Notes under the pieces: generated by a model
The model's database searches: none
What the model was told of the DNA's origin: nothing
Seen by the model: only the letters and a program-made list of their open reading frames with translations
Shown: piece by piece, positions 5,388-10,814 of the stretch
How the letters are laid out: each line of letters starts with the position of its first letter
Numbering within the stretch: the first letter of the stretch is position 1
Position numbers and translations under genes: made by a program
Source: a virus
Lineage: Duplodnaviria > Heunggongvirae > Uroviricota > Caudoviricetes
IMG/VR virus record: IMGVR_UViG_3300020049_013266
Coordinates: 1-10,814 of that record
Length of the DNA stretch: 10,814 nt
Direction: 5' to 3' (one strand)

Positions 5388-5624
5388 ATGGAAACTAAAA
5401 GAATAAGATTGTTGTCAGTAGAAATATTTAACAGAGAGCCTTTTGTGTATGTAGCAGATAAGCCACGCCCTATAAAAATTGATGGCAAACAGGAAATGAG
5501 AACTATTACCAATATTATTGAAAAAGACAATCATTATGAGGTTTATCTTTCCTCCGGAGCAGAAAGCAAACATTGGAAAGACATTCCAAAAAACAACAAT
5601 GTAACAGTTGAGTATTATGTATAG
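5388..5624 (+). CDS. Hypothetical protein (78 aa), overlapping the start of the GroES-like gene
   Basis: A-rich leader (AAATAAAATG) and a compact beta-rich sequence (HYEVYL...HWKDIP...VTVEY). Its end overlaps the next gene's ATG 5617. Confidence 0.65.
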   Translation: METKRIRLLSVEIFNREPFVYVADKPRPIKIDGKQEMRTITNIIEKDNHYEVYLSSGAESKHWKDIPKNNNVTVEYYV

Positions 5625-6180
5625 GATGCCAAACAGATTTATCGTTTCTCCGTTAAATAACGAAAAGTTCATCACCGAAAAACAAATAGGTGATAAAAAA
5701 ATGATTATTAATACTTCTATAGAAAACGCTAAAGACGTAAACAGAATAGGAGTAGTTAAGTCTGTTCCATTGAATTATGAAGGAGAAATAAAAATAGGTG
5801 ATCATGTTGTTGTTCAGCATAATGTATTTAGAACGTTTTTTGACGGACAAGGATTAACAAGAGAATCTGACTTTCATATAGAAGGAGATTTATTTTTTGT
5901 TCTTCCTGAATTAATATTTTTAATAATTAGAGTAGAGGAGAAAATCCCGGTTGAGGGCTTTTGTTTTGTAGAACCAATTATCGAAACTAAGAAATGGATT
6001 GGAGACGTTGAATTAGAGCATCAAGGCTTTGTCAAGTACACAAACAATTATTTGAAATCCATAGGGGTTAATAATGGTGACAGAATAGCTTTTAGCGTAG
6101 ATTCGGAATACGAGTTTATGATTGAAGATATGAGGCTTTACAGAATGAGGAATAGTTCTATTTTAGCCAAACTTGATTAG
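5617..6180 (+). CDS. Co-chaperonin GroES-like protein with two tandem GroES-fold domains
   Basis: Domain 1: PNRFIVSP...IGVVKSVP...IKIGDHVVV...IEGDLFFV. Domain 2: EGFCFVEP...GFVKY...VNNGDRIAF..DSEYEFMIEDMRLYRMRNSSILAKL, matching the GroES pattern VKVGDKVLF..Y.G.E..IDG..Y....ESDILA. The track start 5608 is TTG; ATG 5617 or 5626 is more likely. Confidence 0.72.
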   Translation: MYRMPNRFIVSPLNNEKFITEKQIGDKKMIINTSIENAKDVNRIGVVKSVPLNYEGEIKIGDHVVVQHNVFRTFFDGQGLTRESDFHIEGDLFFVLPELIFLIIRVEEKIPVEGFCFVEPIIETKKWIGDVELEHQGFVKYTNNYLKSIGVNNGDRIAFSVDSEYEFMIEDMRLYRMRNSSILAKLD

Positions 6181-6265: not shown

Positions 6266-7036
6266 ATGCCAACTCCAAAATATATTTTTACGTCTGCTAA
6301 TGGGCAGTTAATAGCCACGTTAGATAATGCTCTTTCTGATTTTGAAAACTCTGAAATACTTGAATATAGAGCACCATCGGTACACCTTTACAATCCTATA
6401 GTATCTGGGCAAACAAAAAAAATACACTTGTTTGATTTTGGGGAATATGAAAGAGAATTTTTGTTTGAAAACATAAAAACTATTGGAGGAGCTACCCCTT
6501 CCGACATATCAAATGCCTACACTCTTTTACAGGCATTAATTCCTATTCCTTACAGTAGTGCCATGACACAGTCTGGTACATGGACGGTTCAAGTAGGAAA
6601 TACCCCAAATACTACCCCGATTTTAGCAAATCACCTTACCCCTGTTGTTAGTACAACCGGAGATACTGGAGCAAAAACAGCTACAGGAAATGGAGCTACA
6701 CAAACAAATGTAAGTGCAAAAGGAGCTTTAGTAGTTGTGAATTTAGGTACTGTAACAGGAACTACTCCTACAGCTGTATTTAAGTTACAAGGATCGGCAG
6801 ACTCCGGAACAACATGGGTTGATCTTCCTGGAGCCGCAACAGCAACATTAACAGCTACGGGCGTGTACGCAATAGAAGTTTTTCCTGGCATAACCACAGC
6901 TGCCGGAGTAGCAACATCAGGAAACATTGCTACATCAAGTACAGCGCTTCCAAGAACATGGAGAGTTGTATGGACATTGGGAGGAACCACGCCATCATTT
7001 ACCATAACAAATATTCAAGTGAATTATATCTTATAA
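6266..7036 (+). CDS. Putative virion structural or decoration protein (two-part; C-terminal Thr/Gly/Ala-rich beta-sandwich)
   Basis: The C-terminal about 130 aa (LVVVNLGTVTGTTPTAVFKLQGSADSGTTWVDLPGA...LPRTWRVVWTLGGTTPSFT) is a jelly-roll-like pattern I associate with phage minor capsid or cement proteins. The N-terminal about 95 aa is unrelated in composition. Confidence 0.5.
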   Translation: MPTPKYIFTSANGQLIATLDNALSDFENSEILEYRAPSVHLYNPIVSGQTKKIHLFDFGEYEREFLFENIKTIGGATPSDISNAYTLLQALIPIPYSSAMTQSGTWTVQVGNTPNTTPILANHLTPVVSTTGDTGAKTATGNGATQTNVSAKGALVVVNLGTVTGTTPTAVFKLQGSADSGTTWVDLPGAATATLTATGVYAIEVFPGITTAAGVATSGNIATSSTALPRTWRVVWTLGGTTPSFTITNIQVNYIL

Positions 7037-7049
7037 TTCTAATAACACA

Positions 7050-9710
7050 ATGCGAGGACTTTCCGAAGAAATAGAATATGCTATTCAAAATGCATTAACA
7101 GGAATGGCGCTTAGCGTTGATATTCTGGAAGTTGATGATGAAAAGCTGTCTAGCTTGGTGAAGTCTAGAATCGACTCTTTTTCCGCTATAAAAGAACTGC
7201 TTGTAACATGGCAAAATAGTCCTAATGCCCCTTCTCACGATAAACTAAAAGGATATATCGTGGATTTGGTAGGAGCTGGAGAAAATTCAATTGAAGTTCT
7301 TCGAAAAGCATTAAAAAAGAAAATTGACTTTAAGGAATTAGAAGCTGAGAAATACGGAAACGCTATTCGATCAAAGCCGATTATATTAAAGGCAATTACT
7401 GATATTAATGCTGGTAATATTGAGTTGAAAAAGCAAATAGAAGCAGATAAATTTGATTTACAAGAAAGGGAATTTAAAAGAGGATACCCTGAAAAATTTG
7501 CAAATCAAGAATTTTACCCGTTAAAAAACTACCATAAAGAATGGTATGACAAAGGCTCTGATAGTGTAATGATTTGCCCACTGGGTACAAAAGGAGAAGT
7601 CGTTGTTCTTGATGGTTTAAATATTATGCTGCCTAAAAAACCAAGAAGAAAAGACATTCTTTTTGAAAAATATCCAAAAGAACAACAATATTGGAGAAGA
7701 ACAGAGATGCCTAACGGACTAACTCCAGATACGGAATCCGCTTTTACTGATTTCATCCTACAAGAGTTTAAAAGAAGAAGAGAAGGAGTTTGGTTTATGA
7801 ATAATGGAGAAGCTGTTTATTTAACAGGATCACATTATTTTGCATTAAATTGGTGCATCTTAAAAGATGAACGATTTGTTGGTTACATGGGGTATAGAGA
7901 AGCCCAGAAACTAATGTTTTACCATACAGAAGCTTGTGTTTTAGATCAAAGATGTATAGGTCAGTTTTTTGTAAAATCTAGAAGGACTGGATATACTTAT
8001 GAAAAATTATTCAGAATGCTAAATGAATTTACATCCACAAATAAAGCAAATTTTGGATTAACTTCTAAGTCTGATGAAGATGCTAAAAAAGCATTCAAAA
8101 AACTTTCTTATGCTTTTCTTAATTTACCTTTTTTCTTTAGACCAATAGTTAAAGGAAAAGAAGATAGTGATGTTAGAATTGAATTCGCAAAACCATCTAA
8201 CAATTCTAATGCATCTAAAAAAAATAGAGACACGAGCACAAAAGATTATCTGAACTCAACATTTGATTATGAGCCAACAAAAGAAGATGCGTATGATGGA
8301 CAAGCAATGTTCAGATATCTTGCCGATGAAGCTTCTAAATGGAAAAGAGGATTAAATTTTCTTAAACACTGGGGAGAGGTAGGCCCAACTATGGACGAAG
8401 GTGGTGATATTGTTGGAAAAGCTTTTGTAGGCTCAACAGTTGCAGCCATGAAGGATGGCGGAGAGGCGTTTTTAGAGCTTCACAAACAATCTTTAGTTAA
8501 GTCAAGAGACAAAATTACTGAAAGAACTCCAAGCGGGCTTTATGCTTATTTTTTACCAGCCCACAAAAACATGGCTGATTATACAGATAAATATGGAGTT
8601 TGTCACGAACACGTTGTTCCTGGAGAAAGCTTCATAAATACAAAAGGGAAAATTAAGACAATTGGGTCTGTACAGTTCTTGGAGGCTAAAAGATCTGCAA
8701 AAAAGAAAGAAGGAGATGTAGATTATAATAACGAACTTAGAGCGTTTCCTATGACTCTAAAGGATGCTTTTCGCGATGAGATAACATCTACAATATTCAA
8801 TATTGAAAAAATAAATGAACAGTTAGATTTTAATGAGACGTATGATGTAAGGAAAAAACTTGTTAGAGGAAATTTTTCATGGGAAAACAATAATCCTGAT
8901 ACCCGAGTTATTTGGACTCCAACTGAAAAAGGGCGGTTTCTAGTTGGTTGGATTCCTCCTCCAGAAATGCAAAACAAATGGATAGAAAAAAGAAATGAAT
9001 TTGGATTTGTATGTAAGCATCCATTAAATGACGATTTAGGTGCTTTTGGAGTAGACACTTATGATCAAGACTCTACTCAGGGAAGTAAATTAGAAAACAC
9101 GGAAAATGGGTCAGAACACACTGGAGGATCAAAAGGAGCTATGCTAGGACTTACAGGAACTACTCTTAAGGATGCTCCAAGCAATTATTTCTTCCTAGAA
9201 TATGTCACTAGACCTCAAACTGCGGAGATATTTTTTGAAGATTGTTTGATGGCTTGTGTATTCTATGGAATGCCCGCACTTATTGAAAACAATAAAATTA
9301 GATTTTTATTGCATTTTAGAAATAGAGGCTATAGAGGATTTTCTATAAATCGATTTGACAAGGCAATGAGTAAGCTTTCGCAGACAGAGAGAGACTTGGG
9401 AGGTATACCTAGTTCAGGAGAGGAAATGATAACAACACACTGGACCGGTATAGAAAGCTACATTGACAAATATGTAGGTTATTATGCGCAAGGTCAAAAT
9501 ACTTTTCCTGTTAGAGAAGAAGGGGAAATGGGCAGTATGGATTTCGAAAGAACTTTAAGGGACTGGTCTCAATTTAATGTTGCAAAAAGAACTAACTTTG
9601 ATGCGACCATTGCTTCCGGATATGCAATTATGGCGGTAAACAGAAGACCATACTTAGCTCCATCTGGACCAAAAAAACCAGTACAAATAAAATTCGCAAC
9701 ATATCGATAA
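7050..9710 (+). CDS. terL: Terminase large subunit with an extended helical N-terminus (possible fused small subunit)
   Basis: Adenine-binding-type YREAQ, Walker A VKSRRTGYT (aa 308-316), Walker B YLADEASKW, coupling motif FVGST, and RNase H-like nuclease acidic motifs FGVDTYD and NFDATIASG. It is directly followed by a portal-like gene. Confidence 0.92.
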   Translation: MRGLSEEIEYAIQNALTGMALSVDILEVDDEKLSSLVKSRIDSFSAIKELLVTWQNSPNAPSHDKLKGYIVDLVGAGENSIEVLRKALKKKIDFKELEAEKYGNAIRSKPIILKAITDINAGNIELKKQIEADKFDLQEREFKRGYPEKFANQEFYPLKNYHKEWYDKGSDSVMICPLGTKGEVVVLDGLNIMLPKKPRRKDILFEKYPKEQQYWRRTEMPNGLTPDTESAFTDFILQEFKRRREGVWFMNNGEAVYLTGSHYFALNWCILKDERFVGYMGYREAQKLMFYHTEACVLDQRCIGQFFVKSRRTGYTYEKLFRMLNEFTSTNKANFGLTSKSDEDAKKAFKKLSYAFLNLPFFFRPIVKGKEDSDVRIEFAKPSNNSNASKKNRDTSTKDYLNSTFDYEPTKEDAYDGQAMFRYLADEASKWKRGLNFLKHWGEVGPTMDEGGDIVGKAFVGSTVAAMKDGGEAFLELHKQSLVKSRDKITERTPSGLYAYFLPAHKNMADYTDKYGVCHEHVVPGESFINTKGKIKTIGSVQFLEAKRSAKKKEGDVDYNNELRAFPMTLKDAFRDEITSTIFNIEKINEQLDFNETYDVRKKLVRGNFSWENNNPDTRVIWTPTEKGRFLVGWIPPPEMQNKWIEKRNEFGFVCKHPLNDDLGAFGVDTYDQDSTQGSKLENTENGSEHTGGSKGAMLGLTGTTLKDAPSNYFFLEYVTRPQTAEIFFEDCLMACVFYGMPALIENNKIRFLLHFRNRGYRGFSINRFDKAMSKLSQTERDLGGIPSSGEEMITTHWTGIESYIDKYVGYYAQGQNTFPVREEGEMGSMDFERTLRDWSQFNVAKRTNFDATIASGYAIMAVNRRPYLAPSGPKKPVQIKFATYR

Positions 9711-9713
9711 GAC

Positions 9714-10814
9714 ATGACAGAAGATAGTAAATTTAAAATATCGCAAAACATAGCTCCTCCAAGTCAATTAGATAGCTTTGTGACTAAATCATCTCGTGAG
9801 TTCGGGAAAGCTGTTGGGAATATGATTTATTCTGAATGGTTCTATAAAGGAAGTGGGAGATGTAGGTTTTATGCCAATAGAACAGAATTTTTCGAGAGAA
9901 GAATATATGCCAATGGGAAGGTTAATATGGAGAAGTATTATGCTAAATTAGGTACTAATGGAGATGTATCTTTGCTTAATTTGAGCAAAAAATCTCTTTC
10001 TACAATGCCTAAAATAGTAGATTTGGTAGTTAACGGAATGGTAAACAGACCTTATTCAGTGGTAGCCAAAGCTATTGATCCTACTTCGCAGGATGAAAAA
10101 AGGTCATATCGACAAAAGATTGAGAAAGAAAGAAACGCAATTCCTATTACTCAAAAAATAAAAGCGGAAACCGGTATAGATGTTAGCGAAATGACTATTG
10201 ACGAAATTCCGCAAACAAAAGAAGAATTGGATATCCACATGCAAATGGATTGGAAGCCATCAAACTGCCTTTCCAATCAATTAGCTATCGCTGCGGTAAT
10301 GAGCGAGAATGAGTATAATCTTATTGTAGACAGGCAAATTAAGAGAGATTTGGTTGTGGATGGTGTTGCCTGGAACCGAACAAGACTAAATCCGGCAAAA
10401 GGAATTATAATTGAGCGAGTTGATCCGGCCGACATGATTTATTCCCAAACGAAAGATCCTTACTTTAGAGACTGTTTCTATAAAGGCCATGTAAAAACTG
10501 TTTTGATTAGCGATATATTCGTTGAATATCCGGAATTGCTATCTTCTGAAAATGCAGAAGTGAAAAAAGAAATAGAACTTTCTGGGCAAAATTGGTACAA
10601 CATGCATGAATTGTCTGCGTCAGATAATTTAAAAGGGACAACAAACTTACTTTATTACACGTATAAAACTTTCAGAGAAAGAGCATCTAAAGTAAAAAAG
10701 AAATCCAATGGTGAAACTATTATAGATGAAGCCGATGAAGTTTTCGATGCAACAAAACAAAATAAAAAAGACAAGTACATAAGAAACTCTGTTGTAGAGG
10801 AAGTTTTGTTTGAA
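9714..10814 (+). CDS. Portal protein (partial, 367 codons, runs off the window); not in the ORF track
   Basis: Translated by hand with no stop: MTEDSKFKISQNIAPPSQLD...EWFYK...NGDVSLLNLSKKSLSTMPKIVDLVVNGM...EELDIHMQMDWK...ERVDPADMIYS...PYFRDCFYKGHVK. It starts 3 nt after the terL stop. Motifs resemble, from recollection, portals of Flavobacteriia-type phages. Confidence 0.82.
   Translation, partial: MTEDSKFKISQNIAPPSQLDSFVTKSSREFGKAVGNMIYSEWFYKGSGRCRFYANRTEFFERRIYANGKVNMEKYYAKLGTNGDVSLLNLSKKSLSTMPKIVDLVVNGMVNRPYSVVAKAIDPTSQDEKRSYRQKIEKERNAIPITQKIKAETGIDVSEMTIDEIPQTKEELDIHMQMDWKPSNCLSNQLAIAAVMSENEYNLIVDRQIKRDLVVDGVAWNRTRLNPAKGIIIERVDPADMIYSQTKDPYFRDCFYKGHVKTVLISDIFVEYPELLSSENAEVKKEIELSGQNWYNMHELSASDNLKGTTNLLYYTYKTFRERASKVKKKSNGETIIDEADEVFDATKQNKKDKYIRNSVVEEVLFE

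Follow-up and report, generated by a model that had tools for sequence, protein, structure and literature searches.

Phage DNA packaging poses the unsettled question of how rings of 8-12 small terminase (TerS) subunits cooperate with a pentameric large terminase (TerL). In lambda and P22, the C-terminus of TerS binds the N-terminus of TerL, and in lambda the protomer has the composition TerL1:TerS2 (PMC9611059). The gp1 protein of the gene transfer agent RcGTA consists of a coiled-coil hairpin and a conserved C-terminal helix that binds TerL; it has no DNA-binding domain, and it is essential for packaging (PMC6854486). The TerS of phage 44RR was described as 'a simple helical hairpin' (PMC9611059). 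Herpesviruses have a third, chaperone-like terminase subunit (PMC9611059). The present analysis concerns the terL gene in a 10,814-nt stretch of the genome of a flavobacterial Caudoviricetes phage (positions 1 to 10,814 of IMG/VR record IMGVR_UViG_3300020049_013266, hereafter the window). An earlier note on this stretch had proposed that the gene is a natural TerS-TerL fusion with an internally duplicated TerS-like part. Our analyses show a natural gene fusion: part of the N-terminal extension of TerL is homologous to a separate small protein encoded directly upstream of terL in related phages. This unit is probably a TerS-like partner (probability about 0.6).

The unit resembles RcGTA gp1 and the gp16 core of the T4-like phage 44RR (PDB 3TXS) in having a helical hairpin and, after it, a conserved C-terminal segment, without a DNA-binding domain at the N-terminus. 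Their genes also lie directly upstream of terL, as does the standalone open reading frame (ORF) of the related phages. TerL binding by the C-terminal segment is a property of those two proteins, to which the unit is likened from their descriptions. They differ in being separate subunits, neither fused nor duplicated. PDB profile searches with the unit, including 3TXS-type chains, gave no match, and no specific fold similarity was found. The lambda assembly gpA1:gpNu1(2) is like the fused TerL in that there are two small units per TerL, and the C-terminus of the small subunit is joined to the N-terminus of TerL, non-covalently in lambda (PMC9611059). However, gpNu1 is a separate polypeptide with a winged helix-turn-helix (HTH) DNA-binding domain, and no homology was found.

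The fused terminase gene and its distribution

The terminase gene at positions 7050-9710 (+ strand) is open throughout its 886 amino acids (aa). Met occurs only at aa 1, 19, 174, and 193, so the Met-free interval between aa 19 and 174 was correctly noted before. The ATG at position 7050 is supported as the start because the N-terminal pattern M-x-G-L-S-x-x-I-E is kept in 41 relatives. The TerL family profile phrog_6681, which represents the TerL of the Pachyviridae/Pervagoviridae type, covers aa 161-881 (profile positions 12-741 of 758, E = 9.9e-154). Since this match begins only at aa 161, the first ~155 aa are unaccounted for. The encoded protein can be divided into an N-terminal double-hairpin module, a linker, and a TerL core.

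The AlphaFold2 model of the extension (m9ab91480c919; predicted local distance difference test (pLDDT) 83, predicted template modelling score (pTM) 0.75) contains two helical hairpins and a disordered linker. Hairpin 1 (aa 1-60, positions 7050-7229, + strand) has helices at aa 4-20 and 30-55, and hairpin 2 (aa 61-133, positions 7230-7448, + strand) has helices at aa 63-89 and 99-132. The helix order and the pTM suggest that both hairpins may pack as a compact four-helix module. The extension has a net charge of -2, and hairpin 1 is acidic (pI 4.3). The flexible linker (aa 134-160, positions 7449-7529, + strand) has pLDDT values below 50 at aa 141-160, and a short helix is predicted at aa 147-151. 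It carries the near-invariant motif PEKFANQEF (aa 147-155, positions 7488-7514), and the alignment columns 142-157 are invariant or near-invariant. The TerL core (positions 7530-9710, + strand) is common to the relatives in which the genes are split. Residues K309, R311, D426, E427, D669, and D851 are invariant in its alignment (A1). From general knowledge of TerL proteins, we take VKSRRTGYT (aa 308-316, positions 7971-7997) to be the Walker A-like motif, LADE (aa 424-427) to be the Walker B/catalytic motif, and the segments at aa 666-672 and 849-855 to be the nuclease Asp motifs. The sequence search with TerL matched no solved TerL structure.

A tblastn search of phage records recovered a single unbroken match in 68 Flavobacterium 'elemo' phages (aa 1-885, 57% identity), and likewise in the Cellulophaga phages Calle_1-3, phi38:1, and phi40:1 (aa 1-868, 42% identity). 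Thus, the fused architecture of the window is identical in the TerL of Elemovirus (e.g. YP_010108896.1, 876 aa) and of Callevirus/Pervagoviridae (e.g. phi38:1 gp090). The extension alone (aa 1-160) matches at least 135 protein clusters (clustered at 90% identity); among the 120 clusters listed, nearly all proteins have about 870-890 aa. The frame is open from the extension into the TerL core in 52 of 54 further IMG/VR loci, which were independently assembled, so that the junction in the window needs no confirmation by reads. Extension and core are nearly equally conserved (50.6% and 56.8% identity to Elemovirus, respectively). The N-terminal extension genuinely belongs to TerL, in frame, and the gene fusion is clade-wide. 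The fusion reported for this phage is therefore real, but it is not peculiar to it: it is the norm in a large clade to which published phages belong. As one possible refutation, the earlier note had named the case that all TerLs of the family carry this region as an ordinary N-terminal domain; this is so within the fused clade, whereas in the sister clades the region is a separate gene. The fused protein is already present in public records of cultured phages, where it is named 'terminase large subunit' (as in RefSeq for Elemovirus) or 'hypothetical protein', without annotation of the module. In the literature searched, no paper remarks on this fusion or describes, for these phages, a natural fusion of TerS with TerL. 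Several fused TerLs also bear inteins (P0048, P0051, P0060, P0117, and P0121; 1210-1232 aa), with the homing-endonuclease/intein domains PF05203, PF05204, and PF14528.

The standalone homologue and the internal duplication

A second group of relatives matches the window TerL only from aa ~154-159. This split group comprises the Pachyviridae phages phi13:2, phi18:3, phi19:3, and phi46:3, the Tenacibaculum phage Gundel_1, MW202828, and about 70 IMG/VR loci. Only 17-53 open codons precede the core in the terL frame at these loci. As the earlier note had stated for related phages, a separate small ORF precedes terL: it encodes 88-113 aa, lies between the GroES-like gene and terL, and has its end at the start of terL or within it (about 70 loci). 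It has its own stop, encodes a single hairpin, and in most cases lies in the +1 frame with respect to terL. The lengths of the two products add up to that of the fused protein (99 + 775 aa in phi13:2; 876-886 aa fused). The C-terminus of the standalone protein, ...[KQ]GFAE[RK]RSK*, is strongly conserved in about 70 split loci, and one locus has KGFAEKFSR*. In the fused proteins, RG[YF][PA]EKFA is found at aa 143-151 and is followed by EF[YF]P.KNY.KEW, which aligns with the N-terminus of the split TerL (DYIPK...KN..KSW.YGY). The AlphaFold2 model of the standalone protein (pLDDT 84) has two long helices (positions 3-26 and 39-75), a tail of low confidence, and one short helix (88-92). Its body is acidic, and only the tail is basic. 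The family has 394 members at E <= 0.001 in a library of 50%-identity representatives. The profile phrog_20415 ('unknown function') matches phi13:2 gp097 at E = 6e-65, and the MW202828 ORF only at E = 0.11.

Most terL frames of the split clade (loci L012-L085, e.g. L022:1117-1240) lack an ATG ahead of the conserved core. Their first start codon is a TTG (or GTG) located 23 (17) nt ahead of the stop of the upstream ORF, within the GGA-TTT-GCA-GAA codons for GFAE. The split terL is probably translated from a TTG start or by termination-reinitiation. Because the split terL often lacks ATG and lies in the +1 frame, a programmed +1 frameshift joining both ORFs was also considered. It was rejected as the main explanation, given the variable stop context, the lack of a conserved slippery site, and the ATG/ATGA coupling at several loci. 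In one case (P0147, 138 aa), the upstream ORF enters the terL frame through an indel about 12 codons before the usual stop, which may reflect either a genuine fusion in the making or an error in sequencing.

Pairwise BLASTP between the extension and three upstream ORFs was not significant, so profile-profile comparison was needed. Profiles were built for the extension (A2, 41 sequences) and the standalone family (A3, 44 sequences; a deeper version has 97). With hhalign, aa 71-153 of the extension aligned co-linearly and end to end with positions 9-95 of 97 in A3 (P = 3e-4, score 28.6). Column-shuffled profiles scored 12.6 +/- 2.8 (maximum 20.6), and the reversed profile scored 9.9. The P value improved to 5.6e-5 with the 97 standalone sequences, and to 1.8e-5 with aa 69-156 alone. 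The Pachyviridae upstream ORFs align in register with A3 (P = 2-3e-3). The terminal motifs correspond at an equivalent place (GFAE[RK]..* in the standalone form and G[YF][PA]EKFA in the fused form). The AlphaFold2 helix plans also agree: the standalone helices 3-26, 39-75, and 88-92 correspond to helices 63-89, 99-132, and 147-151 of the fused unit. These results show that hairpin 2 and the linker are homologous and syntenic to the standalone ORF, i.e. that a natural gene fusion exists. The ORF of the large, uncultured clade of MW202828-like phages and of the Pachyviridae (phi13:2 gp097, Gundel_1 gp075) shares the helix-loop-helix-tail plan, the terminal motif, and the genomic slot with hairpin 2 and the linker, and differs in being a separate gene with a single hairpin.

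The earlier note had also aligned two segments of the extension, aa 23-50 and 92-119, with 7 identities in 28 positions. The repeat signal in the single sequence is marginal (Smith-Waterman score 38, shuffled sequences 24.1 +/- 4.4, p = 0.011). At the profile level, hhalign recovered the same register for aa 9-50 and 78-119 (score 27.7, P = 6.4e-5), whereas column shuffles scored 10.6 +/- 1.8 (maximum 15.7) and the reversed profile 10.4. The profile comparison thus shows an internal duplication of the extension. Hairpin 1 has no signal to the standalone profile (E = 0.33 / 0.02); it is a diverged copy of hairpin 2, through which alone it is related to the standalone family. Among the standalone proteins, P0137 (163 aa) combines one GFAERRAK tail with two hairpin units that stand in tandem and still resemble each other closely. 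It corresponds, without the fusion, to the double-hairpin module of the window and arose by an independent, recent duplication, so the unit has been duplicated more than once. Scans of viral and metagenome contigs for the genomic context of P0137 found no match.

A phylogenetic tree of the TerL core comprised 84 sequences. Its eight fused tips are monophyletic (support 1.0) and are sister to a split clade of 73 tips. The split Pachyviridae fall outside both with outgroup as well as midpoint rooting. The parsimonious reading is a single fusion event on the stem that leads to Elemovirus and Callevirus. The TerL and major capsid protein of Pachyviridae and Pervagoviridae have been placed near the Crassvirales (PMC9855967).

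Alternative explanations and the identity of the unit

A frameshift, an assembly error, or a mis-called start might join two genes artificially, or TerL might start internally without the upstream part. A few short database proteins (92-102 aa), which cover just part of the extension, point in this direction. They were considered as a conserved split form and rejected, because they are truncated or frameshifted, with divergent tails at arbitrary points, or come from tiny contigs. Moreover, no in-frame ATG, GTG, or TTG between aa 120 and 173 is conserved among 37 relatives, the single frame is open in the 52 of 54 independent assemblies and in all cultured relatives, and the extension is conserved at the protein level. 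The chance of such an artefact is close to negligible. The likeness between the extension and the upstream ORF might also reflect convergence or chance among amphipathic helical hairpins, the extension then being merely a clade-specific N-terminal domain of TerL. The pairwise BLASTP E values of about 1-2, the moderate hhalign probabilities (40-78%), and the lack of an hmmscan match between the phrog_20415 profile and the window extension all speak for this possibility, and the first two also weigh against a TerS-like fusion. However, the profile alignment runs end to end, is co-linear, and becomes better with the deeper profile; its score of 28.6 exceeds the reversed profile (9.9) and every shuffle (<=20.6). 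The terminal motif is common at the equivalent position, the order GroES-like, unit, TerL, and portal is exactly syntenic, and the lengths sum as described. Convergence is therefore very unlikely.

The nature of the fused partner is more difficult to judge. The TerS identity is suggested by the position of the unit, by its hairpin-plus-tail architecture, and by the fact that no other TerS was found. The standalone homologues sit directly upstream of terL and coupled to it, where terS genes sit (about 70 loci), and in the window the unit lies inside terL. The unit fits the minimal TerS plan without HTH, which has a coiled-coil hairpin and a conserved C-terminal helix, as a match of architecture. 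The central helical hairpin is present in the AlphaFold2 models of both the fused and the standalone forms, although the fold is generic. The low-confidence tail of the standalone protein carries the conserved GFAERRSK, and the fused equivalent lies in the linker to TerL. The earlier note had seen no separate small-terminase gene upstream, and indeed none of the ORFs upstream of terL in the window has a Pfam or PHROG small-terminase match. A PHROG scan of the complete 74.8-kb genome, which covered 56 ORFs with a length of 96 aa or more, found no other TerS. The annotations of RefSeq elemoA and of phi13:2 gp001-gp100 contain no TerS either.

Several observations weigh against a TerS identity. 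The AlphaFold2 models of both forms have long helices only, with no HTH. Searches of Pfam, PHROG, PDB sequences, and the ESM Atlas with the extension and the standalone family found no TerS and no named family (E up to 1-10). No TerS was among the matches listed by Foldseek (PDB, BFVD) and VIA-align wide for both AlphaFold2 models. The fold searches listed helical bundles and hairpins of a generic kind, among them syntaxin/Sso2 (Z 11) and CHMP4B (Z 8.6), and are uninformative for such folds; helical hairpins are generic by nature. There is no basic surface, as the extension has its slight negative net charge and the standalone body is acidic. An unrecognised TerS could also be encoded elsewhere, since not all ORFs shorter than 96 aa were scanned. 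The module and its standalone homologue might instead be terminase-associated in another role, for example as an assembly or chaperone-like third subunit (cf. herpesvirus pUL33), an aid to pentamerisation or portal docking, or a nuclease regulator. Recognition of DNA would then fall to TerL itself, or to an unrecognised protein encoded elsewhere. The lack of HTH, of net positive charge, and of any TerS family or fold match argues for such a role. So do the PHROGs entry of the phi13:2 homologue as 'unknown function' (phrog_20415), the many unannotated small ORFs in the genome, and the chaperone-like third terminase subunit of herpesviruses (PMC9611059). Against it, the overlap with the terL start and the plan of a hairpin with a conserved tail are exactly those of a validated TerS without HTH (PMC6854486), and no alternative TerS candidate was found in the genome or in the annotated relatives. 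On weighing the evidence on both sides, we favour the TerS-like partner fused to TerL, and regard a different terminase-associated role as a possible but less likely explanation. The observation of the earlier note is thus confirmed. Its interpretation as a TerS-TerL fusion is partly supported: the natural fusion stands, and the position and architecture fit, but the analysis revealed neither a TerS family or fold nor an HTH.

Gene neighbourhood and implications for packaging

The IMG/VR phage genome is complete at 74.8 kb, with a 121-bp terminal overlap and a guanine-cytosine (GC) content of 32%, and the window is its first 10.8 kb. The gene order in the window is endolysin, tail-fibre-like genes, GroES-like gene, a 256-aa ORF, fused terL, and portal. 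The GroES-like gene (positions 5608-6180, + strand) was identified by phrog_13932 (E = 6e-21) and synteny. In relatives from the fused clade it directly adjoins terL, and in those from the split clades it adjoins the small upstream ORF. The portal gene (positions 9714-10814 for the 5' part in the window, + strand) begins 4 nt past the terL stop; it matches phrog_6547 (E = 3e-39), and its full ORF in the genome spans 9714-12140 (808 aa). The order GroES-like, TerL, and portal is common to the window, the Elemovirus, and the Callevirus/Pervagoviridae phages, and the window differs only by the inserted 256-aa ORF (positions 6266-7036, + strand). This ORF is not TerS-like, and has no match in Pfam or PHROG. 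It has 44% GC, as compared with 32% for the genome, and is rich in T/G/A/V. It is probably a recent lineage-specific acquisition, because it is missing in about 60 related loci, where terL adjoins the GroES-like gene.

Two further observations concern the rest of the genome. There are two GroES-like genes: the long one (187-190 aa) lies by terL, and one of ordinary length (phrog_3188) lies at G000:C1:69709-70008 (- strand). A 520-aa ORF adjoining the second one occupies the slot of GroEL in elemoA. In addition, a terL-like fragment of 40 aa (G000:C1:22034-22153, + strand, locus L087), outside the window, is 50% identical to TerL aa 603-642; it has one in-frame TGA and sits between two structural genes.

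In the fused clade, a small helical-hairpin protein has been duplicated in tandem and covalently joined to TerL. The plan of the standalone protein (in the fused form, hairpin 2 and then the PEKFANQEF linker) continues into the TerL N-terminus, with an extra, diverged hairpin in front. A possible mechanism can be proposed for this clade. The unit is probably a small regulatory or assembly partner of the terminase, which would make it equivalent to a minimal TerS without HTH of the RcGTA gp1 or T4-like 44RR type. Its conserved C-terminal tail would dock on the N-terminus of TerL, and in the fused clade a peptide bond might have replaced this non-covalent docking. The duplication may supply, in one chain, the pair of hairpins that is otherwise made by dimerisation (a pseudo-dimer). 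A more tentative proposal, which we consider doubtful at present, is that the fused clade has a single-chain terminase holoenzyme, in which the TerS function is carried by a tethered hairpin pseudo-dimer with two units per ATPase, and no free 8-12-mer TerS ring takes part in packaging. The 10:5 TerS:TerL stoichiometry suggested in the earlier note is speculation.

If the unit is a TerS equivalent, TerS function would tolerate or prefer a fixed, tethered 2:1 arrangement, and the docking motif (GFAERRSK / PEKFANQEF) would be pinpointed. This reading would also suggest what a family of 'hypothetical' phage proteins of ~93 aa probably does, and would explain the absence of annotated TerS in the Elemovirus, Callevirus, and Pachyviridae genomes. 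The fused phages (phi38:1 and elemo) are cultured, and split sister phages are available for direct comparison; their hosts are marine and freshwater flavobacteria. If the single-chain holoenzyme proved true, these phages would be a natural experiment that favours lambda-like TerL1:TerS2 protomers over ring-based models of TerS.

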